This document shows, piece by piece, positions 19,331 to 63,330 of a DNA stretch of 64,000 bases. The position numbers were made by a program, and so were the translations under genes. A model generated the notes under the pieces. That model did no database searches. It saw only the letters and a program-made list of their open reading frames with translations, and had not been told where the DNA came from. The first letter of the stretch is position 1, and every line of letters begins with the position of its first letter. This stretch comes from an uncultured Gemmatimonadales bacterium (GTDB lineage Bacteria > Gemmatimonadota > Gemmatimonadetes > Longimicrobiales > RSA9): assembly GCA_963783305.1 (NCBI GenBank), contig CAWAMW010000016.1, positions 739,491 to 803,490 on the forward strand, read 5' to 3'.

Positions 19331-19567
19331 GGGGGAACGCCTCGTCCGCGTGAAGCGCCCTCTTTCTCGCGCGTGGTGCCGTAGCGCGTCGTGCCTTTCC
19401 GTCGATTCACCGACGTCAATCCGGCACTGCCGACCGTTCAACGTGCCGTTCCCCGATATACCCCGGTGGGCGAGGTGGAATCGACGCGGGAGCCGGGAGC
19501 TCGGTCGGTCTGACGATTTTTCGTCGTATAGCGGGGACAACTCGCCAGCGACGCCTTCCGGGTCGCG

Positions 19568-24281: not shown

Positions 24282-24293
24282 GGAGGAGGACCC

Positions 24294-27927: not shown

Positions 27928-28768
27928 CCGGCGCGACTGGCTGAAGGCCATGGGCGGTGCGGCCGCCGTGGTGGCGCTGCCGGGCCGAGCCGCGGCGAGC
28001 GAGCCGGCCCTGCTGTCGGACGAGGTGGCGTATGGACTCCTCTACGACACGACGCTCTGCATCGGGTGCCAGGCGTGCGTGGTGGCGTGCCGGCAGGCGA
28101 ACGGGGACGAGAAGGAGGGGCCGCACGCGGCGGCGCAGAACCTGGACTCGGAGACGCGCAACATCATCTACGCGGCGCGCGATGAGTCGGGCGATTTCCT
28201 GTCGTACATGAAGCGGCAGTGCATGCACTGCGCGGAGCCGGCGTGCGCGAGCGCGTGCATGTTCGGGGGTCTGAAGAAGGACGAGCATGGCCGGGTCTGG
28301 TGGAACGGCGACCTGTGCGTGGGGTGCCGCTACTGCCAGATCGCGTGCCCGTTCGGGGTGCCGCGGTTCGAGTGGGACTCGGCGAACCCCGAGATCGTGA
28401 AGTGTGAGCTGTGCCGACACCGCGACGAGGGGCCCGCGTGCGCGGAGGTGTGTCCCCGTGGCGCGGTGATCACGGGTACGCGGTCGGAGCTGCTGCGGGA
28501 GGCCCGTCGCCGGCTGGCGGACCATCCGGAGCGGTACGTCCCCCGGATCTACGGGGAGACGGACGCGGGCGGGACCCAGTGTCTGTACCTGTCGCACGTG
28601 CCGTTCGAGGATCTGGGGCTGCCGGCCGTGGGGGATCGGCCGCTGCCGGACTACACCGAGCAGGTGCACGGCCTCATCTGGAAGGGGGCGGTGATCCCGA
28701 GCGCGCTGTACGCGATCCTGGGGCTGGCGGTGTTCCGGAACAACCGCGCGCACAAGGAGGACGCATGA
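27917..28768 (+). CDS. hybA: Hydrogenase-2 Fe-S subunit, copy 2
   Basis: RRDWLK; CIGCQAC, CMHCAEPAC, CVGCRYCQIACP. Confidence 0.92.
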   Translation: MGIDRRDWLKAMGGAAAVVALPGRAAASEPALLSDEVAYGLLYDTTLCIGCQACVVACRQANGDEKEGPHAAAQNLDSETRNIIYAARDESGDFLSYMKRQCMHCAEPACASACMFGGLKKDEHGRVWWNGDLCVGCRYCQIACPFGVPRFEWDSANPEIVKCELCRHRDEGPACAEVCPRGAVITGTRSELLREARRRLADHPERYVPRIYGETDAGGTQCLYLSHVPFEDLGLPAVGDRPLPDYTEQVHGLIWKGAVIPSALYAILGLAVFRNNRAHKEDA

Positions 28769-29985
28769 GCGCGCACGTGCACGTCGAGGATGACACCGCG
28801 CCGCTCGGGGGCCCGCTGCTGTCGCCGTTCGTGAAGCTGCTGCTGGTGGTCTCGGCGGTGTGGGTGGCGCTGGTGGTGTACCGGTTCGCGGTGGGGATCG
28901 GCCCGGTGAGCGCCATGAACGACGGCTACGCGTGGGGCTCGTGGAAGATCTTCAACGTCATCGTGCTGACCGCGCTCGCGTCGGGCGGCTATGCCACCGC
29001 CACGGTGGTGTACGTGCTCAACCGGGGTCGCTACCACTCGCTGATCCGGACGGCCATCGTCACGAGCGTGCTCGGCTACACCACGGCCATGGTGGCGCTG
29101 GGGATGGACGTGGGCCGGCCGTGGAACATGTGGCGGATCATGAACCCGGTCGGCTGGAACGGGCACTCCGTGCTGCTGGAGATCGCGGTGTGCGTCACGC
29201 TCTACGCAGGGTTCCTCTGGCTGGAGATGACGTACCCGGCGCTGGACGGGTGGCGGAGCTCTCAGGACTCGCGGCTGCGACGGATCGCGGCGCGGCTGCA
29301 TCCCATCATGGAGAAGGCGTACCCGTTCATCGTGGCGACGGCGATCTTCCTGCCCACGCTGCACCAGTCGAGCCTCGGCTCGCTCTTCCTGCTGGCGGGC
29401 CCGCGGCTGCACGACCTGTGGCAGACGCCGCTGCTCCCGCTCTTCTTCCTGGTGGCCGCCTTCCTCATGGGGTTCAGCGCGGTGATCGGGGTGTCACTGC
29501 TGTCGAGCCTGATCTGGAGGACGCCGTATCAGACACCGATGCTGAGCCGGCTCGCCCGGATCATGGCGTGGCTGATGATCGCGCTGGTGGTGGGACGGTG
29601 GGCCGACTGGGCGTCGCAGGGGGAGCTGGGCCAGCTCTTCCGGCTGGACAAGTACGCGGTCCTGGCGTGGCTGGAGACGGCGCTGCTCATGGGCCCGGCG
29701 CTCTTCGCGCTGGGCTACGACATGAGGCGGACGCGGAACCTCTACATGGCGGCGGGTGGCGCGGCGGTGGGCGGGATGCTCTACCGGCTGGACGCGAGCC
29801 TGATCGCCTTCGCGCCGGACGAGCGGTACAGCTACTTCCCGTCGCTCGTGGAGCTGTTCCTGACCTTCGGGCTGATCTGCATCGCGGTACTGGGCTACAT
29901 CCTGTTCGTGAAGACGCTCCCGATCCTGCCCAGCCGGCGGCCGATCGGGCCTGAGAACCGACCGCACTTCGACCACGCCGCGTGA
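28765..29985 (+). CDS. hybB: NrfD-family membrane subunit, copy 2
   Basis: DGYAWG, DVGRPWN, LPTLHQSSLGSL; ATGA overlap with hybA2. Confidence 0.9.
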   Translation: MSAHVHVEDDTAPLGGPLLSPFVKLLLVVSAVWVALVVYRFAVGIGPVSAMNDGYAWGSWKIFNVIVLTALASGGYATATVVYVLNRGRYHSLIRTAIVTSVLGYTTAMVALGMDVGRPWNMWRIMNPVGWNGHSVLLEIAVCVTLYAGFLWLEMTYPALDGWRSSQDSRLRRIAARLHPIMEKAYPFIVATAIFLPTLHQSSLGSLFLLAGPRLHDLWQTPLLPLFFLVAAFLMGFSAVIGVSLLSSLIWRTPYQTPMLSRLARIMAWLMIALVVGRWADWASQGELGQLFRLDKYAVLAWLETALLMGPALFALGYDMRRTRNLYMAAGGAAVGGMLYRLDASLIAFAPDERYSYFPSLVELFLTFGLICIAVLGYILFVKTLPILPSRRPIGPENRPHFDHAA

Positions 29986-30007
29986 AGCGCGGGGGAGCGA
30001 GACCGAT

Positions 30008-31717
30008 ATGACAATGATCGTGGTGGATCCGGTTACCCGGATCGAAGGCCACCTGCGGGTGGACGTGGAAGCCGAGGACGGGTTCGTTAAGAACGCGTGG
30101 TCGAGCGGACAGATGTGGCGCGGGATCGAGCTGATCCTGAAGGACCGCGACCCGCGGGACGCGTGGGTGTTCACGCAGCGGATCTGCGGCGTGTGCACCA
30201 CGGTGCACGCCATCGCGAGCGTCCGGGCGGTGGAGGACGCGCTGAAGCTGGAGGTGCCGGCCAACGCGCAGTATATCCGCAACCTGATCCTGATCAGCCA
30301 CGCGCTGCACGACCACATCGTGCACTTCTACCACCTCTCCGCGCTGGACTGGGTGGACGTGGTGAGCGCGCTGGACGCGGATCCGCGCAAGGCGGCGGCG
30401 CTGGGCGCGAGCCTGAGCGAGTGGCCGGGGAACAGCGTGCAGGCGCTGACGGAGGTGAAGCAGAAGCTCCAGAAGCTGGTGCAGAGCGGTCAGCTCGGGA
30501 TCTTCGCCAACGGCTACTGGGGCCACAGCGCCATGCGGCTCCCGCCCGAGGCGAACCTGCTGGCGGCGGCGCACTACCTCCAGGCGCTGGAGTACCAGCG
30601 GAAGGCCACGCAGGCCACGGCGATCCTGGGCGCCAAGACGCCCCATATCCAGAACCTGGCCGTGGGCGGCGTGGCGAACCCCATCAACCTGGACAACCAG
30701 TCGGCGCTGAACATGGAGAAGCTGTACCGCTGGCTGGACCTCATGCGGGACGTGAACCAGTTCATCCGCCAGGCCTACCTGCCGGACGTGGCGGCGGTCG
30801 CCGCCCACTACCCGGAGTGGCTCGGCTACGGGGCCGGCGTGACCAACTACATGGCCGTGCCGGACCTCCCGCTGGACGCCGGTGCCACGAAGTTCGACCT
30901 GCCGGGCGGGATGGTGTCCGCCAACGGTGGACCCACCGGACGGCTGGACCGATGGAACGACAGCCGCTGGTCGGAGGGCGTGACAGAGACCGCGGCGCGG
31001 GCGTGGTACGAGAAGTCGCAACCGCTCCACCCGCACGTGGGCGAGACGAACCCCGCGTACACCGGCTTCGACCGCGACGCCGATTACAGCTGGGTCAAGG
31101 CGCCGCGCTTCGAGGGCGTCCCCATGCAGGTGGGCCCGCTGGCCCAGACGCTGGTGGGGCTGGAGCAGGGCCACCCGCTGTTCGTGAAGTACGGGACGCA
31201 GATGCTGGAGACCGCGGGGGGGCTGGCGGGGATGAAGCTCGGACCGGAAGTGCTGCACTCGACGCTGGGCCGCCACGCGGCCCGCGCCATCCGGGCGGGC
31301 GTCCTCACGGACCTGGTGGAGAAGCACTGGACGCTGCTGGCCGACAATATCGGCTCCGGCGATACGGAGACGTTCCGCGAGTGGGAGTACCCGAAGCACG
31401 AGGTGCGCGGCTATGGGGTCCACGAGGCGCCGCGCGGCGTGCTCAGCCACTGGGTCGTGATCGAGGACGAGAAGATCAAGAACTACCAGGCCGTGGTGCC
31501 ATCGACCTGGAACGCGGGCCCGCGCGACGAGGAAGGGCAGCTCGGCCCGTACGAGGCCAGCCTGGTGGGGAACCCCGTGGCCGACCCGGAGCGCCCGCTG
31601 GAGGTGATTCGCACCGTCCACTCGTTCGATCCGTGCCTGGCCTGCGCGATCCATACGCTGGATCCGGAGGGGCGGGAGCTGAGCGAGGTGCAGGCGGTGG
31701 GGTACTGCGCGACGTGA
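30008..31717 (+). CDS. hybC: [NiFe]-hydrogenase large subunit, copy 2
   Basis: DPVTRIEGH, QRICGVCTTVH, SFDPCLACAIH. Confidence 0.95.
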   Translation: MTMIVVDPVTRIEGHLRVDVEAEDGFVKNAWSSGQMWRGIELILKDRDPRDAWVFTQRICGVCTTVHAIASVRAVEDALKLEVPANAQYIRNLILISHALHDHIVHFYHLSALDWVDVVSALDADPRKAAALGASLSEWPGNSVQALTEVKQKLQKLVQSGQLGIFANGYWGHSAMRLPPEANLLAAAHYLQALEYQRKATQATAILGAKTPHIQNLAVGGVANPINLDNQSALNMEKLYRWLDLMRDVNQFIRQAYLPDVAAVAAHYPEWLGYGAGVTNYMAVPDLPLDAGATKFDLPGGMVSANGGPTGRLDRWNDSRWSEGVTETAARAWYEKSQPLHPHVGETNPAYTGFDRDADYSWVKAPRFEGVPMQVGPLAQTLVGLEQGHPLFVKYGTQMLETAGGLAGMKLGPEVLHSTLGRHAARAIRAGVLTDLVEKHWTLLADNIGSGDTETFREWEYPKHEVRGYGVHEAPRGVLSHWVVIEDEKIKNYQAVVPSTWNAGPRDEEGQLGPYEASLVGNPVADPERPLEVIRTVHSFDPCLACAIHTLDPEGRELSEVQAVGYCAT

Positions 31718-31793
31718 CAGGTTACAGAACACAGATTACAGAACACAGATTACAGAACACAGATTACAGAATACAGATTACAGAACACAGAAC
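31717..31793. repeat. AT-rich tandem repeat, 14-nt unit ACAGATTACAGAAC (heptamer-based), about 5.5 copies
   Basis: Starts at the hybC2 stop codon. Confidence 0.93.
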
Positions 31794-42825: not shown

Positions 42826-44887
42826 ATGAAAACCCCCACCCTCGCCGCGATCCTCATCCTCGCCGCCGCCGCGACCCTCGCCGCGCAGGCCACCGGCCCG
42901 GCCGCGACCTTCCAGCCGGCGGACGTCTTCGGTCTGGAGGTGGGAGCGGACCCGCGGATCTCGCCGGACGGGGAGTGGGTGGTGTACGTGCGGACGGGGT
43001 TCGACGTGATGGAGGACGGGACGGTGTCGAACCTGTGGCTGGTGCCGTGGTCGGGGGGCGAGGGTCGTCCGTTGACGACGGGGTCGCAGCGGGACGGGTC
43101 GCCCCGGTGGTCGCCGGACGGGGGTCGGCTGGCGTACGTGTCGAACGAGGAGGACGGGAGCCAGGTCTGGCTGCGGTGGATGGACGGGAGCGGGGCGGTG
43201 GCGAAGCTGACGTCGCTGACGGAGTCGCCGGGTGGGCTGGCGTGGTCGCCGGACGGGCGGTGGCTGGCGTTCACGATGTTCGTGCCGGGGGAGGGCGCGG
43301 CGCTGGATGTGGACATGCCGCGGCGGCCGGAGGGCGCGGACTGGGGGCCGGCGTGGACGTACATCGACGCGCTGGACTACCGGTCGGACGGGAACCCGGG
43401 GTTCATCCGGGCGGGGCACCGGCAGCTGTTCGTGCTGCCGGCGGAGGGGGGGACGCCGCGGCAGGTGACCAGCGGGCCGTACGACCACGGCGCGCCGTCG
43501 TGGACGCCGGACGGCCGCGGGCTCGTCTTCTCCGCCAACCGCCACGACGACCGGGAGCGGATGCCGCGGAACACGGAGCTGTGGCGGGTGGACGTGGCGA
43601 CGGGCGCGCTGACGCAGCTCACCGACCGGTTCGGTCCGGACGGGAGCCCGGCGGTGTCGCCGGACGGCCGCCGCATCGCCTTCATCGGGTACGATGACGC
43701 GTTCCAGGGCTACCAGAATACTCGCCTCTACGTCATGGACGCGGATGGCACGAACCGCCGGGAGCTGGCGGCGTCGCTGGACCGGGGTCTGGGCGGCCCC
43801 GTGTGGAGCGCGGACGGCCGGGGCCTCTATATCGACTACGACAGCGAGGGGACGGGCCGGCTGGCGTACGTGGATGTGTCGAGTGGTGGGGTGAGGGAGC
43901 TGGCGGACCGGGTGGGCGGGCTGAGCCTGGGGCGGCCGTACGGCGGCGGGTCGTGGAGCGTGGCCCGGAACGGCCGGTTCGCGTTCACGCGGTCGTCGCC
44001 CGCGCGGCCGGCGGAGGTGGCGGTGGGCGAGCGTCGTCGCCCGGGGCAGGCCCGACTCGTCACAGCCCTCAACGCGGACCTGCTGGGCCACAAGACGCTG
44101 GGGCAGGTGGAGGAGCTGTGGTGGGAGTCGTCGTACGACGGTCGGCGGATCCAAGGCTGGGTCGTCACGCCGCCGGGGTTCGACGCGTCGCGGGAGTACC
44201 CGCTGATCCTGGAGATCCACGGCGGACCGTTCGCGAACTACGGGCCCCGCTTCGCCGCCGAGGTCCAGCTTTATGCGGCCGCCGGGTACGTGGTGCTGTA
44301 CACGAACCCGCGGGGGAGCACGTCGTACGGCGAGGAGTTCGGGAACCTGATCCACCACGCGTACCCGTCGCAGGACTACGACGACATGATGAGCGGCGTG
44401 GACGCGGTGATGGGGCGGGGGTACGTGGACCCGGCCCGGCTGTACGTGACGGGTGGGAGCGGCGGCGGCGTGCTCACGGCGTGGATCGTGGGGAGCACGG
44501 ACCGGTTCCGGGCGGCCGTGGTCCAGAAGCCGGTGATCAACTGGTCGAGCTTCGTGCTGCACGCCGACGCGCCGGCCACCTTCTGGCGCTACTGGTTCCC
44601 GGGCCCGCCGTGGGAGTACCCGGAGCACTACTGGGCCCGGTCGCCGCTGTCACGGGTGGGGAATGTTTCGACGCCCACCATGCTCATCAGCGGCGAGGCT
44701 GGACTACCGCACGCCCACGTCGGAGAGCGAGCAGTACTACGCGGCGCTGCAGATCCGGGAGGTGCCGAGCGCGCTTGTGCGGGTCCCGGACGCGTCGCAT
44801 GGGATCGCGAACAAGCCGAGCAACCTGATCGAGAAGGTGGCGTACGTGCTGGGGTGGTTCGGGAAGTGGGGCGGGGTGGCTCGCTGA
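42826..44887 (+). CDS. S9 family (acylaminoacyl/dipeptidyl) peptidase with 1-nt frameshift near 44698
   Basis: Signal peptide, WSPDG propeller repeats, IHGGP, GGSGGG nucleophile; catalytic D (DYRTP) and H (ASHG) lie in the shifted frame. Confidence 0.9.
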
Positions 44888-45082
44888 CGCTCGCAGGGTG
44901 GCTCGCTGGCGCTCGCAGGGTGGCTCGCTGATGCTCGCAGGGTGGCTCGCTGACGCTCGCAGGGTGGCTCGCTGACGCTCGCAGGGTGGCTCGCTGACGC
45001 TCGCAGGGTGGCTCGCTGGCGCTCGCAGGGTGGCTCGCTGATGCTCGCAGGGTGGCTCGCTGGCGCTCGCAGGGTGGCTCGG
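44874..45082. repeat. Tandem repeat, 22-nt unit GGGTGGCTCGCTGACGCTCGCA, 9.5 copies
   Basis: 22-nt period with GAC/GGC/GAT variants. Confidence 0.95.
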
Positions 45083-45481
45083 CTGCACGGGACATATTCC
45101 GGCGGACTCCCAATCAATCCCGGAGGCAGGATTGTTTGGGGCCTCGACCGGGTTGGGCGTGGGTGAGAGGCGGAATCCCGAGGTGAGCGGAGCGCAGCAG
45201 ACCCCGGCTCACAGGTGTGTCTCGGTACCGGATCGAGCGGAAACGACCGCGGGCCGCGCCGGGGGTCTGGCTGCGCGGCGGCCGGGTGGTCGGGGAAGTC
45301 TGCGCATGGGAAGTGGTACAGCGGGCGCCCGGCTGGCGGCAAGAGGCTCGCGGCGAGGCCGCTGCGGCAAATTGTGTCATCCCAGGGGGTTTGTCAGGCG
45401 ATGAGGGCCGCGGTATGTTGCCGCAGCCCCCCGCGCGGCGCGATCGCCGCTGCCACACCCTTGCGAAACGGACGGTACCCT

Positions 45482-48364
45482 ATGCGGGCTGGCCCGACAC
45501 GACGGCTGCATCCGACCTCGCGGTTCTTCGCGACCCTCCTTGCCCTTCTCATCGTTCTCACGCTGATGCCCGGCGCCACCGCGCCGGGCGCGGCCCAGGA
45601 GCCGGCGACGGCTCCGCTGGGGTCGGCCGCGGCCCAGGGGTCGGTCCCGCTGGACACGGCGGTGGTGACGGGGACGCTGGACAACGGGCTGCGCTACTTC
45701 ATCCGGGGGAACCGCCGGCCTGAAGCGCGGGCGGAGCTGCGGCTGGTGGTGAATGCGGGGTCGGTGCTGGAGGACGAGTCGCAGCGGGGGCTGGCGCACT
45801 TCGTGGAGCACATGGCGTTCAACGGGACGCGGAACTTCGCGAAGCAGGAGCTGGTGGACTACCTGGAGTCGATCGGGATGCGGTTCGGCCCGGACCTGAA
45901 CGCGTACACGTCGTTCGACGAGACGGTGTACATGCTTACGGTGCCGACGGACAGCGCGGGTCTGCTGGAGCGAGGGCTCGGGATCCTGGAGGACTGGGCG
46001 TGGGGTCAGACGTTCGACCCGGACGAGGTGGAGAAGGAGCGCGGGGTGGTGGTGGAGGAGTGGCGTCTGGGGCGTGGGGCGCAGGCGCGGATGATGGACG
46101 AGCAGCTGCCGGTGCTGTTCCACGGGTCGCGCTACGCGGAGCGGCTGCCCATCGGGGAGCGGGAGGTGCTGGACAGTTTCGACGTGGAGACACTGGAGCG
46201 GTTCTACCGGGACTGGTACCGCCCGGACGTTATGGCGGTGGTGGCGGTGGGCGACTTCGACACGGCGCGGGTCGAGGCGCTGGTGCGGGAGCGGTTCAGC
46301 GGGATCCCCACGCCGGCGCGGCCACGGCCGCGGCCGGAGTACGGGCTGCCGTCCCACGAGGAGACGCTGTTCGCCATCGCCACGGACCCGGAGGCGACGG
46401 GGTCGCAGGTGGCGCTGTACCACAAGCTGCCGCCGCTCCGCACGGGGACGGTGGACGCGTATCGTGAGCGGGTGGTGGAGCGGCTGTTCCTGGGGATGCT
46501 CAACGAACGGCTGCGGGAGCTGACGCAGCAGGCGGACCCGCCGTTCCTGGGGGCGGGGTCGGGGAAGGGCTCGTTCGTGGGCGGCGCGGAGATCCACACG
46601 CTGTCGGCGAGCGTGCCGGATGGCGGGATCGTGCGGGGCCTGGACGCGCTGCTGACGGAAGCGGAGCGGGTGGCGCGTCACGGGTTCACATCGGGTGAGC
46701 TGGAGCGGCAGAAGACCGTGGTCCTGCGGCGGCTGGAGCAGGCGTTCGCGGAGCGGGAGAAGACGGAGTCGAGACGGCTCGCGGGGGAGTACATCCAGCA
46801 CTTCCTCCGCGGCGAGCCCGCGCCGGGCATCGCATACGACTACGCGTTCCACCAGCGGGTGCTGCCGGGCGTGACGCTGGCGGAGGTGGACGCGCTGGCG
46901 GCGTCCTGGATCAAGGACCACAGCCGGGTGGTGCTGGTGAGCGCGCCGGAGAAGGCGGACGTCCCCGTCCCGGACGAGGCGGAGCTGCGAGCGGCCATGC
47001 GGGCGGCGCTGGACCGGCCGGTGCTGGCGTTCGAGGACGAGGTGGTGGACGAGCCGCTCGTCGCCCGGATCCCGGAGCCGACGGCCATCGTGAGCGAGTC
47101 GGAGATCCCGGAGCTCGGGATCACGGAGTGGGAGCTGGCGAACGGCGTGCGCGTCGTGCTCAAGCCCACGGACTTCCAGGACGACCAGGTCCTGCTCGGC
47201 GCGCTGAGTCCCGGCGGGGGCGGCCGTGTCTCCGACGACGAGTACCTCTCTGCCATGATGGCGGCCCCGGTGGCGTCCATGAGCGGCTTCGGCCCGTTCA
47301 GCATGACGGAGCTCCAGAAGAAGCTGGCGGGGAAGGCGGTGATGGTCTCGCCGTGGATCAGCGAGGGCGAGGAGGGGTTCCAGGGCCAGGCCTCGCCCAG
47401 CGACCTGGAGACCCTGTTCCAGCTGGTGTACCTCGAGTTCACCGCGCCCCGCGTCGACAGCGCCGCGTTCCAGTCGCTGAAGAGCCGGTACTCGGCCATC
47501 CTGACCAACCGGGGCGCGAGCCCGGAGGCGGTCTTCACCGACACCATCAGCGTAACCATGGCCGACTACCACCCGCGGGCCCGGCCGCTGTCGCCGGAGC
47601 TCCTGGACGAGCTGGACCTGGGCGTCGCCATGGCCACGTACCGGGACCGGTTCGCGGATGCCAGCGACTTCACGTTCGTGCTCCTGGGCAGCTTCGACAT
47701 TGCCGGCGTACGGCCGCTGGTCCAGCGGTACCTGGGCGGCCTGCCCTCCACCGGTCGGGTGGAGGAGCGCGCCTGGGTCGACATGGACCCGCCCCCCGGC
47801 GTGATCGAGAAGACGGTCCGGAAGGGGACGGAGCCGAAGGCCTCCGCCCACATCCGCTACACCGGCCCCGCCGAGTACAGCGATGCCGCCGCGGAGACCA
47901 TGAGCCTCATGGTGGAGGTGCTGCGGATCCGGCTCCGGGACGTGCTGCGGGAGGACATGGGCGGGACGTACGGCGTGCAGATCCGCGGCAGCCTCGAGCG
48001 GGGTCCCGACGAGGAGTACGACGTCGGCATCCAGTTCGGCACCGACCCCGACCGCGTCGAGGAGCTGACCGCCGCCGTGGCCACCGAGCTCGAGCGGCTC
48101 CGGGCCGACGGGCCCACGCCCGACGAGATGCAGAAGGTGCGGGAGATCCGCCGGCGCGCGATGGAGGTGAACCGCGAGCGCAACGAGTACTGGCTCAGCC
48201 AGCTCTACGAACGCTACCGCTTCGACGAGGACCCGCGGTCGATCCTCGAGGAGGGGGAGCGCGTGGACGCGGTGACGGCCGCGGACGTGCGGGAGGCGGC
48301 GCGGCGGTATCTCGGGGAGGATCGGGTGGCGCGGTTCTTTTTGTATCCGGAGGTGGCTCGCTGA
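45482..48364 (+). CDS. M16 family zinc protease (PqqL-like), secreted
   Basis: GLAHFVEHMAF (HxxEH), NAYTSFDETVY, LREDMGGTYG. Confidence 0.94.
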   Translation: MRAGPTRRLHPTSRFFATLLALLIVLTLMPGATAPGAAQEPATAPLGSAAAQGSVPLDTAVVTGTLDNGLRYFIRGNRRPEARAELRLVVNAGSVLEDESQRGLAHFVEHMAFNGTRNFAKQELVDYLESIGMRFGPDLNAYTSFDETVYMLTVPTDSAGLLERGLGILEDWAWGQTFDPDEVEKERGVVVEEWRLGRGAQARMMDEQLPVLFHGSRYAERLPIGEREVLDSFDVETLERFYRDWYRPDVMAVVAVGDFDTARVEALVRERFSGIPTPARPRPRPEYGLPSHEETLFAIATDPEATGSQVALYHKLPPLRTGTVDAYRERVVERLFLGMLNERLRELTQQADPPFLGAGSGKGSFVGGAEIHTLSASVPDGGIVRGLDALLTEAERVARHGFTSGELERQKTVVLRRLEQAFAEREKTESRRLAGEYIQHFLRGEPAPGIAYDYAFHQRVLPGVTLAEVDALAASWIKDHSRVVLVSAPEKADVPVPDEAELRAAMRAALDRPVLAFEDEVVDEPLVARIPEPTAIVSESEIPELGITEWELANGVRVVLKPTDFQDDQVLLGALSPGGGGRVSDDEYLSAMMAAPVASMSGFGPFSMTELQKKLAGKAVMVSPWISEGEEGFQGQASPSDLETLFQLVYLEFTAPRVDSAAFQSLKSRYSAILTNRGASPEAVFTDTISVTMADYHPRARPLSPELLDELDLGVAMATYRDRFADASDFTFVLLGSFDIAGVRPLVQRYLGGLPSTGRVEERAWVDMDPPPGVIEKTVRKGTEPKASAHIRYTGPAEYSDAAAETMSLMVEVLRIRLRDVLREDMGGTYGVQIRGSLERGPDEEYDVGIQFGTDPDRVEELTAAVATELERLRADGPTPDEMQKVREIRRRAMEVNRERNEYWLSQLYERYRFDEDPRSILEEGERVDAVTAADVREAARRYLGEDRVARFFLYPEVAR

Positions 48365-48509
48365 CGCTCGCAGGGTGGCTCGCTGACGCTCGCAGGGTGG
48401 CTCGCTGACGCTCGCAGGGTGGCTCGCTGACGCTCGCAGGGTGGCTCGCTGACGCTCGCAGGGTGGCTCGCTGACGCTCGCAGGGTGGCTCGGCCCGTGG
48501 CCTCGCAGG
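48351..48509. repeat. Tandem repeat, same 22-nt unit, 6 copies plus degenerate tail
   Basis: Same unit as 44874..45082. Confidence 0.95.
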
Positions 48510-48612
48510 GCTCGGCTGCGCTCGCGTGTAGTTCTACCGAATGGGAATATAGCTGACAATGTTTCAGGGATCTCCCCACTGACAGGCGTGGTCTGGGGGG
48601 CGAGGGTTGAGG

Positions 48613-50179: not shown

Positions 50180-50285
50180 GTTGCGGTGCCGGGCGCCGGG
50201 CGACAACGTTTCGATCGAGACCCGTGGCCGCGGCGGCTTTTCGACCCCCTTCTCGCGCCGCAGCGGGTTCGCCGTGTTGAGCATC
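50180..50285. repeat. Dispersed ~100-bp hairpin repeat, copy 1
   Basis: Core AGACCCGTGGCCGCGGCGGC-N-ACCCCCTTCTCGCGCC-N-CGGGTT shared with copies at 55283 and 63220. Confidence 0.88.
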
Positions 50286-54290: not shown

Positions 54291-54465
54291 GATATACAAG
54301 CGGTTGGCGTCGACGTGTGCCGGATCACTGTTCCGTCTGATCCGGCATCGCAGGAGGGAGTAATCGTCGAACGGGACCGGTAAGCTTGTGAGGTGCTGGT
54401 GGTTTTGAAGATGGTGGCGCACTGTTGGGATTGGCGCGGCGGGTCGCCAGCCTCGAACGTTAGCT
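54291..54465 (+). repeat. attC-like site A (divergent)
   Basis: TACAAGCGGTTGGCG ... CGCCAGCCTCGAACGTTAGCT; 3' half aligns with sites B-F. Confidence 0.65.
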
Positions 54466-54468
54466 GAC

Positions 54469-54924
54469 ATGCTCGAGAAGGGAGTCGTGTGGCTGATGGA
54501 AACAGAGATTCGCAGGGGACGTCGTCAGTTTCAGGCTGTCATGGTTGCAGCCCTGGCTGTCGTCGTGGTGCCATCCTTCATGGTAGTCATTTACACCGGT
54601 GAGTGGATTGGGTTAGGCGGTCAGGTGATTTTCGTTGGCCTGGCAGGTGCTCTCGTCTACACTGGTGCGAAATGGGCACGGTGGGGGCTTGCCCTGTGGT
54701 TCGGGCTCATGGGGCTCATCGTCCTGCTGGCCGGGTTCGTCGCCGCGGGTCTGAGCCTTCGACCGTCGATCAGAGATGTGGCTCCGCACATTCTGCTGGG
54801 TGTGCTGTATGAAATATTCGCGATGATCTTCGCGCTGTCATTCGGGATCGATGGGTGGCTGGATTTTCGGGGGCAGCGGGCTCGAGAACTGGCCAATGGA
54901 GGCCCAGAGTCGCACATCAGCTAG
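54469..54924 (+). CDS. Cassette-encoded membrane protein
   Basis: About 4 TM helices; starts 3 nt after R' GTTAGCT; stop lies inside CAGCTAGC (R''-like). Confidence 0.78.
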
Positions 54925-54974
54925 CAACCGGTCGGCGCCTCGGAGAACCCGCCGCGGCCGTGCAGAGCTGGTGA
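54918..54974 (+). repeat. attC-like site A2, 5' half only, internally deleted
   Basis: CAGCTAGCAACCGGTCGGCGCCT..CGGAGAACCCGCCGCGGCCG..GAGCTGGTGA. Confidence 0.7.
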
Positions 54975-54989
54975 TGGCGCAGATCTTCC

Positions 54990-55282
54990 TGGTCGTGGGC
55001 CCAGAGGCCGGCGTAGCAGTCGGCCTGGAGCTCCATGCGGACGGAGGCGCTGCCGGGCCCGCTCTCCTGGTAGCCGCTGAAGCTCTCCATGGCGCCCGTG
55101 AGGTGCTGGACATGATGGCCGACCTCGTGGGCGATGACGTAGGCTTGGGCGAAGTCGCCGGCGGCGCCGTAGCGGTCGGGGAGCTGCCGAAAGAACCCGA
55201 GGTCGATGTAGACCTGGGCGTCCCGGGGGCAGTAGAAGGGCCCGACGGCGGAGTTGGCGGTGCCGCAGGCGGAGGCGAGCGA
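54990..55282 (-). pseudogene. Internal fragment of neutral zinc metallopeptidase (YpfJ/Zn_peptidase family)
   Basis: [39 protein letters not shown]; both termini missing. Confidence 0.85.
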
Positions 55283-55385
55283 CTTGCGACGACGTGAGCC
55301 GCGTGACACGTTTTCCAGACCCGTGGCCGCGGCGGCTTTCAACCCCCTTCTCGCGCCCCAACGGGTTCGCCTTGATGCATTCTAG
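55283..55385. repeat. Dispersed ~100-bp hairpin repeat, copy 2
   Basis: Begins CTTGCGACGA; same core as copies 1 and 3. Confidence 0.88.
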
Positions 55386-55691
55386 CGAACTCAGCTTCGG
55401 CAATGCTACCGCCGAAGGCAGCATCACGAACTGGGTTTCGCTAATCCAGTAGTTATGCTGCCATGCGCACGTGGAGACCTCAGATGCGATGGGACTTGAT
55501 GCGGCAGGTGCCATGCTCGGGCGATCGGATCGGCTGACGTCGAGATGCTGATGCGCTTGCGGCACTGGTTCGTGCAGTCTGACGCGAGCTGCAGGTCTGT
55601 CGAGGTCATCGGATGCTCGCGAAGCGGACTGGTCGATGCGACGAACGGCTGGAGAGCATCGGCTGGACGGTCGTGGCACTGGGCGCACTGC

Positions 55692-55843
55692 GGATAACAA
55701 ACGGTTGGCGCCTGCGCTCGCCTGCGCGCCGCTCCGGAGAACCCGCCGCGGCCGTCTGGAAGCTGGAGAGGTCGTGGAGTTTCGAAGGCGGTCGCGCGCT
55801 GGAGGTTTCGGCGCGGCGGGTCGCCAACCTGGAAACGTTAACC
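55692..55843 (+). repeat. attC-like site B
   Basis: R'' GGATAAC, L'' GGTTGGCG, L' CGCCAACC, R' GTTAACC. Confidence 0.88.
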
Positions 55844-56032
55844 GCCATGTCCGCACAGGAAGACTGCTGGGTTGCTTCGCCAGGTCGATCGCAGCTGGCT
55901 GGCCGTGGGACGCAGCTGAGTTCGGCTGCGAGCGCGTAGCGGAAGTTCGTGATGAGCGGCTGTTCGAGAGCAGACGGCTGGAGGCCGCGAGTCTAGTGCT
56001 CGAGAGGTCGGCAGAGGCCGGGCGCGCACAGC

Positions 56033-56182
56033 GGCTAACAAACGGTTGGCGCCTGCGCTGCCTTCGGTCGCTCCGGAGAACCCGCCGCGGCCGTCTGGAG
56101 CTGGTGAGGGTCGTGAAGTTTCGAAGGCGGTCGGCGCGCTGGAGGTCGGCGCGGCCGGGTCGCCAACCTGGAAACGTTAAGC
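56033..56182 (+). repeat. attC-like site C
   Basis: GGCTAAC-AAAC-GGTTGGCG ... CGCCAACC-TGGAAAC-GTTAAGC. Confidence 0.9.
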
Positions 56183-56205
56183 GCCACCGCCGGAGAGGAG
56201 TCGCG

Positions 56206-56820
56206 ATGGTACGCGGTATGGTCATGGTGTTTTTGGCGGGCCTGCTTGCATCCTGCGGATCTGGCTCTTCGACGGATCAGGAGCCGGAGGCGGAGTCTTC
56301 TAGCATTTCCGATGAAGTTCCGGGGCTCGCGTTCCAGAAGGTGGCTTGGACTGTCCTAGGAGAGGTTCAGCGCGGGAGCTCCGAGACAGTTCCTCTGGGA
56401 GTGCTCGACGTTACTCGTCGCCAAGTTTGTGCACCGGGATCATCCCCTTGCCGAATGGTCTCTGAGGAACTCCCAATTCCTCAGCGGGCTCGCGAAGCAG
56501 TGGCGGAACACGGTCAACCCGTCCGATTCGTGAGCGTTGCAAATGGCGTGTGTCCGGACGCGGTGTGGCTGGGCTTTGCCGCGGCACGGGTACTAGGACG
56601 GGATTCCTTTGCCGTGACCATTGACTTAGTTGATACCCGGCAACCGTACCCTCGAATGGAACTAGGTCGGGAGTACATGCTGGTGTGTGAGGAGCGGTAT
56701 TGTGCCGTCGCCTCCATTCGGCCTGGGGAAGAACCGGATGTGGAACTGAAGTACGCATCCGAAGCAGAGTGTGAATTCGAGAACGCCGCGGAAGAGCCAT
56801 CGCTGGACGGCGGCGCTTAA
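56206..56820 (+). CDS. Cassette-encoded lipoprotein
   Basis: GAGGAG RBS, LASC lipobox, stop TAA inside R'' GCTTAAC. Confidence 0.82.
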   Translation: MVRGMVMVFLAGLLASCGSGSSTDQEPEAESSSISDEVPGLAFQKVAWTVLGEVQRGSSETVPLGVLDVTRRQVCAPGSSPCRMVSEELPIPQRAREAVAEHGQPVRFVSVANGVCPDAVWLGFAAARVLGRDSFAVTIDLVDTRQPYPRMELGREYMLVCEERYCAVASIRPGEEPDVELKYASEAECEFENAAEEPSLDGGA

Positions 56821-56966
56821 CAAACGGTTGGCGCCTGCGCGGCCTGCGGCCGCTCCGGAGAACCCGCCGCGGCCGTCTTGGAGCTGGTGAGAGAGTCGTG
56901 AGTTTCGAAGGCGGTCGCGCGCTGGAGGTTTCGGCGCGGCGGGTCGCCAACCTGGAAACGTTAAAT
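56815..56966 (+). repeat. attC-like site D
   Basis: GCTTAAC ... GTTAAAT with the same L boxes. Confidence 0.9.
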
Positions 56967-57025
56967 GCCATCACGTAGCGTGTTTCCAGGCGTTAGATTG
57001 GTGGCAGCTTAACGGGAGGATCTGA

Positions 57026-57232
57026 ATGAAGTATCGGGTGCTGGTAGAGCAGGACGAGGACGGATTCTTCGCGGCGGAGGTTCCGGCGCTGCCCGGGTGT
57101 GTCAGCCAGGGCGCGACGCGGCAGGAGGCGCTCGAGAACATCAGGGAGGCGATCGCCGGGTACCTTGAGAGCCTGGATGATCACCAGGAGCCGGTGCCGC
57201 CCTCGATCCACGAAGAGATCGTCGAGGTATAA
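57026..57232 (+). CDS. hicB: HicB family antitoxin (short form)
   Basis: YRVLVEQDEDG.F.AEVPALPGCVSQGATRQEALENIREAI. Confidence 0.92.
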   Translation: MKYRVLVEQDEDGFFAAEVPALPGCVSQGATRQEALENIREAIAGYLESLDDHQEPVPPSIHEEIVEV

Positions 57233-57456
57233 TGGCGGAGCTGCCAGTCGTCTCAGGACGCGAGGCAGTGAAGGCGTTCGGTAAGCTCGGGTATCGAGTC
57301 GACCGTCAACGTGGAAGTCACATCATTCTGAGACAGGCGGAACCCCCTCATCGCCGCCTGACAATTCCAGACCACAAAGAAGTTCGAAAAGGGACGCTGC
57401 GCGCGTTGATTCGTCAGGCTGGCCTGACGGTCGACGAGTTCGTGGCTCTCTTGTAG
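57232..57456 (+). CDS. hicA: HicA family mRNA interferase toxin
   Basis: RQRGSHIIL..TIPDHKEVRKGTLRALIRQAGL. Confidence 0.92.
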   Translation: MAELPVVSGREAVKAFGKLGYRVDRQRGSHIILRQAEPPHRRLTIPDHKEVRKGTLRALIRQAGLTVDEFVALL

Positions 57457-57518
57457 GGCCGGGGAACAGCCCGTTCGAGACAGGTCTTGATGCTGGACGG
57501 GCGTGACGGCAGTTAACA

Positions 57519-57949
57519 CGTATGAGGCCCCGGGCGTCAAGGGTGCGCACGAGTACGAGGCCGTTGCGAGGCAACGGAGCAGCTTTGAGATCGGCCGGTG
57601 ACCCTGACTTGGTTTCGACTCTTGGCTGCAGATTAGGCTCTGCACCAAACACGTATTGAGGCTCGAGGCCTAGAAATTCATTCTGACCCTCGCATCCGGC
57701 CTATTCAAAGGAGACGGGCTCGCCATGAGGCGTCCAGTTATCTCCGGGCTCGGGGGAGGGGCAGAGCCTGCAAGCCGAGCATCTATGTAGATGAGCGAGA
57801 AGGGTGTCCAATCAAACGGCCGCGGTGCCGGACGTGTGGTGCCCATGGAGCCGGGTTCAGGTGCTTCGAGCACATTGGTTACGAACTCCCATGAGGGCTC
57901 TGTCTTTGGCGGCTCGAGTTATACGCCGGGCTCACCCTCCTCACTCTGC
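57519..57949 (-). ncRNA. Candidate bridge/seek RNA region in the IS right end
   Basis: ~430-bp ORF-poor end containing copies of both junction sequences and a duplicated motif; RNA expression is inferred. Confidence 0.6.
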
Positions 57950-58993
57950 TCAGTTCGGAAAGAAGCGATCCATATCGAACGCTCGCTTTTGCTTGAGCAT
58001 GAAGTAGTTGGCGCGGCCGAGCTTGGCGGCCAGGATGCTGAGCGCTTTGCCTTTGCCATAGCGCCGCCGCAGCCGCTTGATGTGCTGCTTCCCGCTCGGG
58101 TTGTTGTGGAGGAAGCAGACGGCCGCCTCGGAGTAGGCCCATTTGAGATGGGCGTTTCCGATCTTCGCGCCGGAGGTGCCCAGGCGTTTGCCGGCGGATT
58201 CCTTGGGTGCTTTCACGAGTCGAGCGTACGAGCTGAAGTTCTGGACTCGCGGAAATCGTTCAATGGTGTGGATCTCATAGAGGATCGTGAGCCCCAGGAT
58301 TCGGCCGATGCCGGGGGTGGTCTGGAGCACGTGGAGTGAATGGGCGTTGTGCCGACTGGCCTGGCGCTGCACCGTCTTCTCGAGTTCCTTGATCACCGTG
58401 TCGTACGTAGTGCAGAGCTGGAGGTCGGCTTGAACGGTGTGGCGGACGATCGGGTCCTTGAATTGGGCTGGGATCGCTTCGCGGCTCTTCTTCGTAAGGA
58501 GCGTTCCCTTCGGGGCCGGCAGGTTGTATTGGTGGAAGGTGTTGCGGACGTGCGAGAGCATCTCGCTCCGCTTCCGAGTGAAGTAGAGTCGGCGGCGAAG
58601 CAGGTCGCGAGTCGCGCGCATTGCAGGCGGATACACATAGGCCTGCGGGATGACGCCACCTCGGAGCAGGACCACGAGCTTCTCGGAGTCGATGCGGTCG
58701 TTCTTGGTCTTGGCGCCGTGGATCGCTTTCAGGTAGAGGGCGTGAGCCAGGACGAAGGCAATCCCGTGCTCAGCACAGAGATCGGCGAGCCAATACCAAC
58801 AGAAGATGCATTCGGCACAGACGACCAGATCCTCCATGTACGGCCGAACGGCCTGCAGAAATTCTTCGGGTGTGCAGTCCGCCCGCTCGTGGAGCAGGAT
58901 GGTGCCCTGGTGGTCGGTGACGCACAGGTACATGGTCCGGGCGTGGAGGTCGACGCCGCAGTAGTAGCGGTGGGAGCCGCGGTAGAAGCGCAT
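57950..58993 (-). CDS. IS110 family DEDD transposase/recombinase
   Basis: CGVDLH, AEC, KTKNDRID (DEDD); TPGIG, ESAGK (candidate catalytic Ser), KIGN..LKWA; CAGGAGG RBS. Confidence 0.95.
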   Translation of the reverse strand: MRFYRGSHRYYCGVDLHARTMYLCVTDHQGTILLHERADCTPEEFLQAVRPYMEDLVVCAECIFCWYWLADLCAEHGIAFVLAHALYLKAIHGAKTKNDRIDSEKLVVLLRGGVIPQAYVYPPAMRATRDLLRRRLYFTRKRSEMLSHVRNTFHQYNLPAPKGTLLTKKSREAIPAQFKDPIVRHTVQADLQLCTTYDTVIKELEKTVQRQASRHNAHSLHVLQTTPGIGRILGLTILYEIHTIERFPRVQNFSSYARLVKAPKESAGKRLGTSGAKIGNAHLKWAYSEAAVCFLHNNPSGKQHIKRLRRRYGKGKALSILAAKLGRANYFMLKQKRAFDMDRFFPN

Positions 58994-59087
58994 GAGGTCC
59001 CCTCCTGGGGTGAGTGGATGCTTTGGTTGGCACCTGACATCCTGCCTGCCCCGTTGGGACAGGTCCAGGAGGGGCCTCGATGAGTAT

Positions 59088-59232
59088 CAAACGGTTGGCG
59101 CCTCCGCGTCCTGCGGCCGCTCCGGAGAACCCGCCGCGGCCGTCTGGGACCTGGTGAGGTTCGTGAAGTTTCGAAGGCAGCCGCGCGCTGGAGGTATCGG
59201 CGCGTCGGGTCGCCAACCTGGGAACGTTATGT
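59088..59232 (+). repeat. attC-like site E, main body (its R'' lies at 57511..57517, on the other side of the IS)
   Basis: CAAACGGTTGGCG ... CGCCAACCTGGGAACGTTATGT. Confidence 0.88.
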
Positions 59233-59284
59233 GCCACCCGCTCGCGGGGCTGGCAATCGTCCACAGATAAGATGAAGGGGGCGC

Positions 59285-59599
59285 GTGATAGAACCGGTTG
59301 CGGTTATCGGGGCGGGTTCGTTGGCGGTCGCGATCTGGCTGGCCTGGGGTGGGGTCCGGTGGTTGAGGGTTGCGAGCCAGGGCAGTTGGCAGTGCAACGG
59401 CTTTCGCGTCGACCCCCGGCACGCGTATCAAAGGAGTGCCATAAAGGGCTTCGGCGCTGTGGCCGTACTCGGTTGCGCTGTGGCCTTCGCATTGGGGGCC
59501 CACGTGTTGTGGGCCATCGCTGGGCCACCGGTCATCATCCTGGACGTCTTCTTAGCTGAGCGGGTCTGGTATCGTCTCTTGCAGAAGCGGCCCGTGTAG
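59285..59599 (+). CDS. Cassette-encoded small membrane protein
   Basis: GTG start after GAAGGGGG; about 3 hydrophobic segments. Confidence 0.65.
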   Translation: MIEPVAVIGAGSLAVAIWLAWGGVRWLRVASQGSWQCNGFRVDPRHAYQRSAIKGFGAVAVLGCAVAFALGAHVLWAIAGPPVIILDVFLAERVWYRLLQKRPV

Positions 59600-59675
59600 C
59601 TGTCGCCGCCCGGGATGCTCCCCCAGGAGCGAACACTCTAGTTCATACACGTGGCGCTCTCATGGGGCGGGCAGC

Positions 59676-59825
59676 ACATATCAAACGGTTGGCGCCTGCG
59701 CGGCCTGCGGCCGCTCCGGAGAACCCGTCGCGGCCGCCTGGGAGCTGGTGAAGTCGTGAGGGTTCGAGGGCGGTCGCGCGCTTGACTTATCGGCGCGGCG
59801 GGTCGCCAGCCTGGAAACGTTGAGC
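59676..59825 (+). repeat. attC-like site F
   Basis: ACATATC-AAAC-GGTTGGCG ... CGCCAGCC-TGGAAAC-GTTGAGC. Confidence 0.87.
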
Positions 59826-59839
59826 GCCATTCTTTGGAA

Positions 59840-60238
59840 ATGAGAACTGTCCTAGGATTCGCGATCGTGGTGATCGGAGCTAATGCGTGTGGAGCGCACC
59901 AGCGCGAGCACGATAATGCCACGGTGGTAGGAGGCCACTACGTCTGGGGGGCGGAAGTGAATGTCTTCAGTCCGTGCGGTTCTGACCTTGAATACTGGGT
60001 CGAGGCTGAGCCGCCGGTCCTCCGTGCCCTCCGCGAACAGTACACTGCGTTTGGGCTTCCGCCGTACCAGGTCGTCTTCGTAGCGGTGCGCGGGGAGATT
60101 GGGCCGGTGTTGGACTGCGGCTTCTGTGTTGAGTATGACGGCAGCTTCAAGGTGGAGGAACTGGTCGAAATGGACTCGCCGGGCCCCGGGAAGTGCGAGA
60201 CCGAGATCGGTGGTACACTCAGGGAGAACGGCGCTTAA
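59840..60238 (+). CDS. Cassette-encoded putative lipoprotein
   Basis: Signal ending NAC; stop inside R'' GCTTAAC. Confidence 0.75.
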   Translation: MRTVLGFAIVVIGANACGAHQREHDNATVVGGHYVWGAEVNVFSPCGSDLEYWVEAEPPVLRALREQYTAFGLPPYQVVFVAVRGEIGPVLDCGFCVEYDGSFKVEELVEMDSPGPGKCETEIGGTLRENGA

Positions 60239-60380
60239 CAACTGGCTGGCGTCTGCGCGGCCTGCGGCCGCTCCGGAGCAACCGGTCGGCTTACGTGGCG
60301 GCGCCAGGAGAGGTGTTGCTGTTCAGGATCTCTGGGGCGATGTAGAAGCGGCGGCCCGTTCGCCAGCTTTGAACGTAGGC
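60233..60380 (+). repeat. attC-like site G (divergent; R' degenerate, GTAGGC)
   Basis: GCTTAACAACTGGCTGGCG..GCCTGCGGCCGCTCCGGAG ... CGCCAGC-TTTGAAC-GTAGGC. Confidence 0.75.
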
Positions 60381-60452
60381 GCCCTAACGTGAATGTTGAA
60401 TCGGGAGATGCTGCAATGGAGGCGTCTGCAGAAGGGGATGCCCCTGTCTGCA

Positions 60453-61167
60453 TCACCCATGGGCCGCTTCGATGATCTCGCGGGTCTTGTCAGCCGAGAC
60501 GTGGCCGCGAGAAACCTTCTTGATGAGCCGCCGGACCGTCCGCGGAGAAGCGGTCGCCAGGTCTTGCGGGAGCGGCCAGCGCCGGAGGATCGCCAGCGGC
60601 GTCCGCTTCTCGATGGACGAGAAAGCACCCAGCAGCTCGGGCCAGCCGAGATCGAGCATGCCCTGGAGTCGGTTTTTGTACCGCGTCGCCTCGACCGTGA
60701 GCCGGTGGCGCTGCATGATCAGGAGCTTGAGCCGCGCCAGATCATCGCTCAGGAAGGGGAAGGGAACGAACCGACCTTCACCCGTGAGGCGCGAGATCAG
60801 CGCGGCGTCGATCTGGTCGGACTTGTTCGGGCTGTTGTCGTCGAGCTCCTTCGCCTTCTTCGTGTGCGCAGGGAGCACGCTCACGATCCTCATGGCCGAG
60901 CTCCCGCAGGAAGTTGGCGTAGGTGAAGCCGTGATGGCCCGCGAACTCGAGCCCGATCAGGAATCCATCGGGCGGGACGTCGGGGAACTGGGCATAGAGG
61001 CGCTCCAGCGACCGCTCGAAGCTCCCCCGAGCCACCTGGACTGTGATGGGATCGGCGGCCACACCGTCGGGCCCACGGGCCACCATGACGTGGTGCTTCT
61101 TGCCGGTGTCGACGCCGACGTGGACGGGGAACGTGCGGGCGTACACCAGCTTCTCGTCCGGTCTCAT
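60453..61167 (-). pseudogene. Second IS110-family transposase, frameshifted (~60889) and C-terminally truncated
   Basis: VGVDTGK, GLEFAG, NKSDQIDA (DEDD); AAGGAGG RBS; C-terminal domain absent. Confidence 0.85.
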
Positions 61168-61407
61168 GAGGCACCTCCTTCGCTGAGGCGCCCGTGAACG
61201 TGTCCGCGGTGCTGGCATGCCCGGTCGGGCCACCGGTGAGGGCGCCGGTCCCACGACCGTATCGGTCTATAGGCGGACAGCCAACCCGTGGACTCCGGAA
61301 GTGAACCCGCTTTCGGACCGGAAGCCCAGCGGGAGCGGGGTCGGCCGGAGCCGCGTAGATTGCGACGGGTGAGCTTGAATGGGAGGGGCCTCCGTAGAGG
61401 CCGGCGA

Positions 61408-61475
61408 GCCTAACACGCGTGTACGGATGTCTGGCGCCTGCGCGGCCTGCGGCCGCTCCGGAGAACCCGCCGCGG
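61408..61475 (+). repeat. attC-like site H, 5' part only
   Basis: TGGCGCCTGCGCGGCCTGCGGCCGCTCCGGAGAACCCGCCGCGG identical to site D; GCCTAAC upstream. Confidence 0.75.
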
Positions 61476-61653
61476 ACCGAAGGAGTCCCGTGCAAGTTCA
61501 GGGTCTTCGAGGAGTTCAAGAAGAACACCACGTCGGGCGCCCACTTAGTCTCGGACTGGCGTCACCTGAAGAAGCGCACCGGTCGCTCCGGAAGGAGCTC
61601 TAAAACGGCAAGGCCGCGGTGAAGGCGCGCCGGGCCGGCCAGGGGGTGAGGAC

Positions 61654-63219: not shown

Positions 63220-63330
63220 CTTGCGACGAACGGCTCCGCGCGGCACGTTTCTGCCAGACCCGTGGCCGCGGCGGCGTTCAACCCCCTTCTCGCGCCGCAG
63301 CGGGTTTGCTCTGATGCACTTCAGGGAGCT
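63220..63330. repeat. Dispersed ~100-bp hairpin repeat, copy 3
   Basis: Begins CTTGCGACGA; same core as copies 1 and 2. Confidence 0.88.

Follow-up and report, generated by a model that had tools for sequence, protein, structure and literature searches.

An orphan cassette array in a Gemmatimonadota genome and its likely catalyst, a recombinase without the integron-integrase insertion

A 64,000-nucleotide stretch of DNA (G000:C16:739491-803490, hereafter the window), taken from a 4.35 Mb genome that is 96% complete, carries an array of gene cassettes with nine attC-like sites (54292-61483, all on the + strand). Judged by its sequence, this array is probably a satellite, orphaned and in part decayed, of an integron-like system; the likely catalyst of that system, the tyrosine recombinase P0001, is encoded on another contig of the same genome (C15). 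P0001 does not have the insertion (I2) of integron integrases (IntI), and its predicted activity is the cleavage of cassette sites folded from single-stranded DNA. A first-pass annotation of the window had described about nine sites in an integrase-less array; all nine were recovered by nhmmer and alignment, and no tyrosine recombinase was found on C16, but the same genome carries P0001 with an array of its own. The annotation had missed this I2-less recombinase on C15, as well as an attI-like site (55383-55458), two IS110-family insertion sequence (IS) elements and a peptidase gene fragment. Its placing of the DNA in a probable Gemmatimonadota genome agrees with the nearest named homologues of P0001, which come from Longimicrobiales and Gemmatimonadetes. 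By contrast, the proposal of a lineage-specific system did not hold: other homologues are named from Paenibacillus and Clostridiales, and the same recombinase family and site signature are present, with an array, at a Cytophagales locus (L013).

The genome-wide repeat search that the annotation had proposed was conducted with an nhmmer profile, and returned 28 matches in four clusters (nine in the C16 window, 15 on C15, two on C12 and two on C14). On C15, 13 co-oriented cassettes form an array that starts 100 bp after the gene for P0001 (C15:291444-292535, + strand), with the first G↓TT, 100 bp after its stop codon, located in an attI-like site. A 26-nt motif just before this G↓TT has one other copy in the genome, at window positions 55422-55447, again before a G↓TT and identical at 25 of 26 positions, so that the window array has an attI-like copy of its own. 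In relatives, an attI-like G↓TT lies at similar positions beside the recombinase, while a general hairpin in attI was seen in the source genome and in G167 and was not clear in G270 or L013. The likely history of the window array is that it received cassettes in trans, or was copied from the C15 platform along with an attI copy, and then decayed. The two smaller orphan clusters are L011 (C12:1-1260) and L012 (C14:7783-8340), the latter sitting, as judged by eye, between type I restriction-modification-like DNA before it and a tRNA-like sequence after it.

P0001 is a 363-aa protein with Phage_int_SAM_4 and Phage_integrase domains (PF00589, E 2.4e-42) and an intact catalytic set (R218, K243/K246, H308, R311, H334 and Y343), in which R218, K243, R311, H334 and Y343 are invariant, and H308 nearly so, across 108 sequences. 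The ~41-residue I2 insertion is missing between patch II and the HxLR motif, leaving 59 residues from R248 to H308; this spacing is 58-60 in 39 of 40 family members (66 in the remaining one) and 60-70 in ten Xer-type proteins, versus 100-101 in 30 of 30 IntI from the same phylum. The integron-integrase model TIGR02249 gave at best 108.6 bits per piece and 201.5 bits over the whole protein against a cut-off of 265, with model positions 179-234 skipped. The NCBIfam cut-offs for XerC (174 against 335), XerD (168 against 330) and XerA_Arch (213.8 against 220, a close score) were not reached either. The top fold match was 2A3V (VchIntIA). Among sequence matches archaeal XerA structures were the best, with 2A3V aligning in two pieces, and a quick maximum-likelihood tree placed the P0001 family, with 82% support for the family, as sister to IntI. 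The genome holds three tyrosine recombinases, none of them on C16, and the other two group with Xer proteins. The intI search that the annotation had suggested thus found P0001 in place of a classical IntI, since none of the recombinases of the source genome reaches the TIGR02249 cut-off. Of 8000 scored candidates, 5884 fall into the family at E 1e-40 or better; other IntI/Xer-like proteins are counted among them. A promoter scan gave one weak, uninformative sigma-70-like match inside the recombinase gene.

Residues 1-79 of P0001 form a separate feature, with a confidently predicted fold (pLDDT 91) that resembles the N-terminus of T4 UvsW (Z 7.1, rmsd 2.1, 60 aligned residues), XPB (Z 5.9) and the HARP domain of SMARCAL1 (Z 4.1). 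These three are structure-specific DNA-binding domains. The HARP family PF07443 was matched weakly by four of seven homologues (best E 0.003) and not by P0001 itself, and a Foldseek search with the N-terminal domain gave no match at E 0.001 or better. The HARP-like domain was present at 15 of 18 I2-less loci, versus 0 of 30 IntI loci.

The sites consist of an R'' box ending in AAC, 4 nt, an 8-nt L'' box, a centre of ~115 nt, an 8-nt L' box exactly complementary to L'', 7 nt and G↓TT, so that the spacer is asymmetric (4 versus 7 nt). The annotation had reported a homogeneous family of ~150-bp sites, which describes four full copies of 150-152 bp and one copy split by an IS; the other copies are divergent or halves. 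It had also quoted complementary cassette ends, and correctly so: across 20 cassettes (13 from C15 and seven from the window), start positions 4-14 matched the reverse complement of the cassette's own end at 180 of 220 positions, against a mean of 111 and a maximum of 146 in 100,000 permutations of the ends. By contrast, R'' and R' of the same site matched at only 77 of 140 of positions 4-10, i.e. the sites are chimeric. Because the start of a cassette complements its own end and not the R'' of the same site, the crossover lies at G↓TT in R', with the classical polarity. The end complementarity extends over ~15 bp, versus about 9-10 bp in classical cassettes, and the sites measure 149-153 bp, whereas classical sites of the source phylum span 64-135 bp.

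Within the complementary ends, position 11 is a near-invariant mismatch that reads as A·C on the top strand and as a T·G wobble on the bottom strand. This bottom-strand wobble was found in 74 of 78 cassettes of I2-less systems (C15, 13/13; window, 6/7; G270, 13/14; G288, 10/10; Cytophagales L013, 5/6; further relatives, 27/28), versus 1 of 9 classical ones. Among the other mismatches at positions 4-14, bottom-strand wobbles outnumbered top-strand wobbles by 27 to 3. At the L box, 56 of 58 sites beside I2-less recombinases fitted an ungapped 8-bp stem no worse than a bulged one, and the same script fitted a bulged-G stem to 17 of 17 sites beside classical IntI, for which 6 of 10 loci gave sites; in this comparison rows that looked like chance pairs or reverse readings were removed by eye (18 for the classical and 23 for the I2-less loci). 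Eleven G270 sites fit the bulge model when read in reverse, i.e. with the extra base on the L'/R' arm. The L stems show compensatory changes across relatives, with at least eight doubly changed variants.

The bottom-strand folding that the annotation had put forward as a check was seen in modelled circle junctions, whose hairpins fold with both R and L paired (mean pairing probability 0.94 on the bottom and 0.89 on the top strand for R, and 0.82 and 0.77 for L). The unpaired T that it had noted beside L' is part of the asymmetric 4 versus 7 nt spacer. As an equivalent of an extrahelical base this T found no support: the folded junction does not pair around it, and the pair flanking it is not conserved. 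Read-derived contigs (88% likeness) that join sites were also dropped as evidence of excision, because repeats of other organisms could yield such joints.

We consider it most likely, and with fair confidence, that P0001 recombines bottom-strand hairpins by a single exchange at AA↓C, followed by replicative resolution. The single-stranded bottom strand would fold into an R arm of ~15 bp, an asymmetric internal loop whose surplus bases lie on the R' side, an L stem of 8 bp without interruption and a branched head. Two recombinase monomers would bind R and L, and one strand would be exchanged at AA↓C with attI or with another site. Without an extrahelical base and the I2 helix, the mismatched spacer itself may block the second exchange, leaving replication to resolve the junction as for CTXphi and XerCD. 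The T·G wobble at position 11 may help to select the bottom strand, and the HARP-like domain may help to bind the junction between single-stranded and duplex DNA, although it is probably not essential.

The same enzyme and cassettes could instead take part in a double-stranded exchange of Xer/Cre type at the L'-spacer-R' half, the inverted repeats being binding sites or relics, a reading that we regard as improbable. It would fit the Xer-like length of the P0001 catalytic domain, the archaeal XerA structures among its best sequence matches, and the 7-nt spacer before G↓TT, which is nearly identical among the sites of the source genome, as branch migration would need; IntI itself also keeps double-strand activity (PMC4792948). 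However, the spacers of the attI-like sites are unlike the site spacer, and spacers vary within single arrays of relatives. A 15-bp complementarity between segments 150 bp apart on the circle, the compensatory changes in L and the 27-to-3 wobble bias are likewise hard to explain without folding.

The association of repeat and recombinase was assessed in relatives. In the source phylum, a P0001-like gene at E 1e-60 or better was found in 10 of 300 other genomes; co-oriented arrays lie behind it in four of them (G167, G270, G249 and G288), and in four more the contig ends soon after the gene (G116, G086, G267 and G179). An adjacent attI-like site and co-orientation recur in G167, G270, G249, G288 and L013. 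L013 was the useful one of 11 loci from a P0001 search of genome contigs, most of which were of Xer type; L014, found in that search, had no repeat array. Matches to the repeat, many of them weak, were present in 33 of 151 order-level genomes, a tally that includes the unpublished G353. When ten genomes were chosen by long repeat matches alone, nine carried the recombinase, whereas one had a TIGR02249 match over the cut-off, separated from its arrays by about 0.5 Mb or more. Six of the ten are assemblies of eight or fewer contigs; in all of these the recombinase lies upstream of repeats on the same strand, and three of these six also have distant orphan arrays like that of the window. Cassette shuffling in relatives, the lack of which would have counted against the annotation's reading, was seen: G324, G344 and G354 each carry an 83% identical copy of the window's HicAB cassette that keeps its termini but lies among unrelated neighbours, and a toxin-antitoxin (TA) cassette of C15 recurs in six related genomes (eight matches). 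One G270 locus (L037:6800-17700) contains many tandem copies of a single ~200-bp cassette with no obvious gene.

These data bear on the idea that the window holds an ordinary cluster of attC sites lacking integron integrases (CALIN), built as classical attC by a lost or unassembled classical IntI, with P0001 as a bystander. Such clusters are common, classical IntI is common in the phylum (over the TIGR02249 cut-off in 124 of 301 genomes, including the unpublished G157), and an IS group that targets classical attC has also entered a site in the window. Against this, the window-type sites do not have the bulged G of all 17 classical sites, the repeat tracks the I2-less recombinase (9/10) and not IntI (1/10), and the neighbouring attI-like site and co-orientation recur in the five systems named above; the idea is largely refuted by this co-location, and we hold it to be quite unlikely. 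That the repeats are intergenic elements like repetitive extragenic palindromes or miniature inverted-repeat transposable elements, or IS scars, in place of recombination sites is highly improbable: the conserved GC-rich centre, the half copies, the IS insertions and another small repeat family nearby would suit it, but the copies are clustered, on one strand and chimeric at G↓TT, with ends complementary far above permutation, and it is refuted because this complementarity is cassette-specific.

Several observations weigh against the reading that we favour, in which P0001 recombines folded bottom strands. The strand preference in folding is modest, bottom exceeding top in 13 of 18 junctions for R and 11 of 18 for L, with L unpaired in 3 of 18, and in-array sites are not unusually stable relative to shuffles (bottom-strand z -2.55, -0.53, 0.0, -2.15, -0.08 and -0.12). 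The position-11 asymmetry could reflect sequence-specific binding rather than wobble. The fold match of the HARP-like domain is middling at its best Z of 7.1, and the three I2-less loci without the domain include the array-bearing L013. The tree carries a long-branch warning in addition to its 82% support, and either an ancestral lack or a loss of I2 is possible. With the genome 96% complete, the assembly could have missed a classical intI. In two of the ten genomes with a P0001-like gene (G279 and G239) the first 1.2-1.5 kb that follow the recombinase contain no array, and in G310, assembled in 240 contigs, repeats were present and no recombinase was found. The relatives are kin, and their counts are thus not independent. 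Finally, 21 I2-less recombinases near attC have been reported and judged not to be IntI (Cury et al. 10.1101/030866).

Compared with sedentary chromosomal integrons and CALINs (IntI, attI, attC; Cury et al. 10.1101/030866), the system described here has in common promoterless co-oriented open reading frames (ORFs), R''-L''...L'-R' sites, the G↓TT crossover, chimeric sites in a homogeneous family, TA cassettes, low GC, and the Phage_int_SAM_4 and Phage_integrase domains. It differs in the missing IntI insertion, the missing extrahelical G in L'', a spacer excess of 2-3 nt on the R' arm, an R arm of ~15 bp with the position-11 wobble in place of ~9-10 bp, sites of 149-153 bp and the HARP-like N-terminal domain. 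It would work like a sedentary chromosomal integron but lacks two defining features, the I2 insertion and the extrahelical base; the integron-type system of the annotation stands as a cassette array, but its sites are not classical attC and no classical IntI was found. In 'inverted integrase' and archaeal integrons (Cury et al.; Ghaly et al. 10.1101/2022.02.06.479319) the integrase is likewise co-oriented, with attI just downstream, but their integrases, archaeal IntI included, are defined by the IntI-specific additional domain that P0001 does not have; Ghaly et al. count Gemmatimonadota among the integron-bearing phyla. The 'Integron-like' simple tyrosine recombinases of Smyshlyaev et al. (PMC8138268) do not fully conserve the insertion, which is called essential for integron function, and the passages on this group describe no arrays for members lacking it. 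CTXphi also uses a single-stranded hairpin without extrahelical bases, recombined by the I2-less XerCD (PMC4792948), but it hijacks the host XerCD at dif, whereas here there is a dedicated recombinase with its own attI-like site and many cassettes. A description of such an I2-less array system was not found in the literature searched, which did not cover subscription journals.

Within the window, seven cassettes of 203-646 bp are bounded by the attC-like sites, of which five are homogeneous, two are full but divergent and two are left halves (all cassettes and sites on the + strand). The cargo comprises HicB-HicA, an NlpE_C-like protein and proteins without a Pfam match. As the annotation had stated, cassette DNA is lower in GC than the flanks (0.636 for the array versus 0.699 for the remaining window). 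Its claim that ORF stops fall inside R'' applies to three of the five ORF-bearing cassettes, the other two stopping 61 and 83 nt earlier. The array begins with site 1 (54292-54465; nhmmer E 1.2e-10, and alignment), a full but divergent copy of 174 bp with a degenerate R'', followed by a cassette (54459-54925) encoding a 151-aa hydrophobic protein (ORF 54469-54924, no Pfam match, stop inside R''). Site 2 (54919-54977), like the later sites given with lengths or as halves an nhmmer match, is a left half cut off by non-cassette DNA. This DNA is a Zn_peptidase (PF04228) gene fragment on the - strand (54989-55278) that interrupts the array and is 93% identical to C7:3974-4263, a region of an intact nearby gene; the last 194 bases of C16 overlap the start of C7, which makes the two contigs adjacent. 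The attI-like site follows (55383-55458, + strand), consisting of the 26-nt motif, an inverted repeat, a 7-nt spacer and G↓TT at 55452. Behind it lies a decayed cassette (55452-55698) with a poor end match (6/10), which together with its site is 78% identical to the sixth C15 cassette.

Site 3 (55692-55843, 152 bp) leads into a 203-bp cassette (55837-56039) with intact ends and no self-contained + strand ORF of at least 50 aa, possibly carrying non-coding cargo. Site 4 (56033-56182, 150 bp) is followed by a cassette (56176-56821) with a 204-aa lipoprotein-like ORF (56206-56820, no Pfam match), whose ends are complementary at 13 of the first 14 positions, and site 5 (56815-56966, 152 bp), the reference copy, by the HicB-HicA toxin-antitoxin cassette (56960-57517; ORFs 57026-57232 and 57232-57456). 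An IS110/IS1111-family element (57518-59088, - strand, transposase 57950-58993) separates the R'' of site 6 (57511-57517) from the remainder of that site (59089-59232). The next cassette (59226-59682) has a 104-aa hydrophobic ORF (59285-59599, no Pfam match). Site 7 (59676-59825, 150 bp), with one change each in R'' and R', precedes a cassette (59819-60239) with a 134-aa NlpE_C-like ORF (59834-60238), which over 345 nt shares 93.6% identity with part of the first C15 cassette. Site 8 (60233-60381, an nhmmer match) has a divergent centre and a degenerate R'; a second IS110-family transposase gene (60453-61254, - strand) lies in two frames, being either broken or an assembly error, and site 9 (61427-61483) is a left half. 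With its half sites, degenerate boxes, two IS and peptidase fragment the array looks decayed, although some of its frameshifts may be assembly errors. An Rfam search of the window gave 0 matches.

The first IS has a long non-coding region downstream of its transposase and short subterminal inverted repeats, and sits exactly after the AAC in R'' of the HicAB cassette. A 2516-nt read contig (run X2) carries the same IS together with both attC-like flanks. In a survey of 80 metagenomic loci, 48 right ends of relatives of this IS were mapped, and 41 of these directly adjoin the AAC of an R''-like box, the arrangement also found in the window. Their targets are mostly classical-looking attC, with a few (e.g. 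L087, L089 and L092) like the new sites, and both types of site thus seem to be used by one IS clade. At its short non-coding end the window IS includes a segment (59020-59033) matching the L'' box of the targeted site at 9 of 10 positions, a possible IS guide. Guides of IS1111-type elements usually lie downstream of the transposase. The perfect subterminal repeats of the window IS are 8 bp, and those of its relatives mostly 8-14 bp. The IS1111-attC group (ISKpn4, ISPst6; PMC11187229) shares the IS110-family transposase, the downstream non-coding region, subterminal repeats and a fixed insertion point in attC, with longer repeats of 11-13 bp. The window IS behaves like that group, of which it is a candidate member; there was no ISKpn4 or ISPst6 match among the 20 plasmid matches listed.

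Other repeats were seen in the region. A separate repeat of ~70-85 bp (86-90% identity) is present four times in the genome, with every copy inside a span of about 15 kb (window 50206-50279, 55300-55385 and 63237-63318, and C7:1525-1591); one of them immediately precedes the attI-like site. Tracts of tandem repeats, with units of 24, 23, 14 and 22 nt, occupy window positions 8085-8372, 19158-19364, 31703-31791, 44809-45149 and 48286-48560. A tandem duplication (about 21060-25792 and 26787-31503, ~5.7-kb spacing, 71-83% identity) probably represents paralogous large genes.

An orphan array alone would be ordinary; the interest lies in the system behind that of the window. Two features serve both to define integrons and to detect them, namely the insertion in IntI and the extrahelical bases of attC sites. 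I2 accommodates the extrahelical bases, and the joint origin of the two has been termed a chicken-egg paradox (Escudero et al., PMC4792948). Here both are missing together while arrays, attI-like sites and shuffling remain, and the paradox therefore becomes directly testable with one 363-aa enzyme and 150-bp sites. A bolder possibility, which we put forward tentatively, is that the P0001 family represents a proto-integron still alive today: a sister clade of IntI, widespread, which would recombine bulge-free single-stranded hairpins without the I2 helix, choosing the strand by the T·G wobble and the asymmetric spacer and often using a HARP-like fork-binding domain. If true, it would be a functional intermediate that resolves the paradox of I2 and extrahelical bases, with a large reservoir of cassettes that IntegronFinder does not see. 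Genome engineering could also gain a tool from a hairpin recombinase that follows different site rules. Since the family is large and reaches phyla thought to be integron-poor, cassette diversity and the distribution of integrons may be underestimated, and the system, likely an integron of a second and simpler kind, would illustrate a way in which integrons could have arisen.

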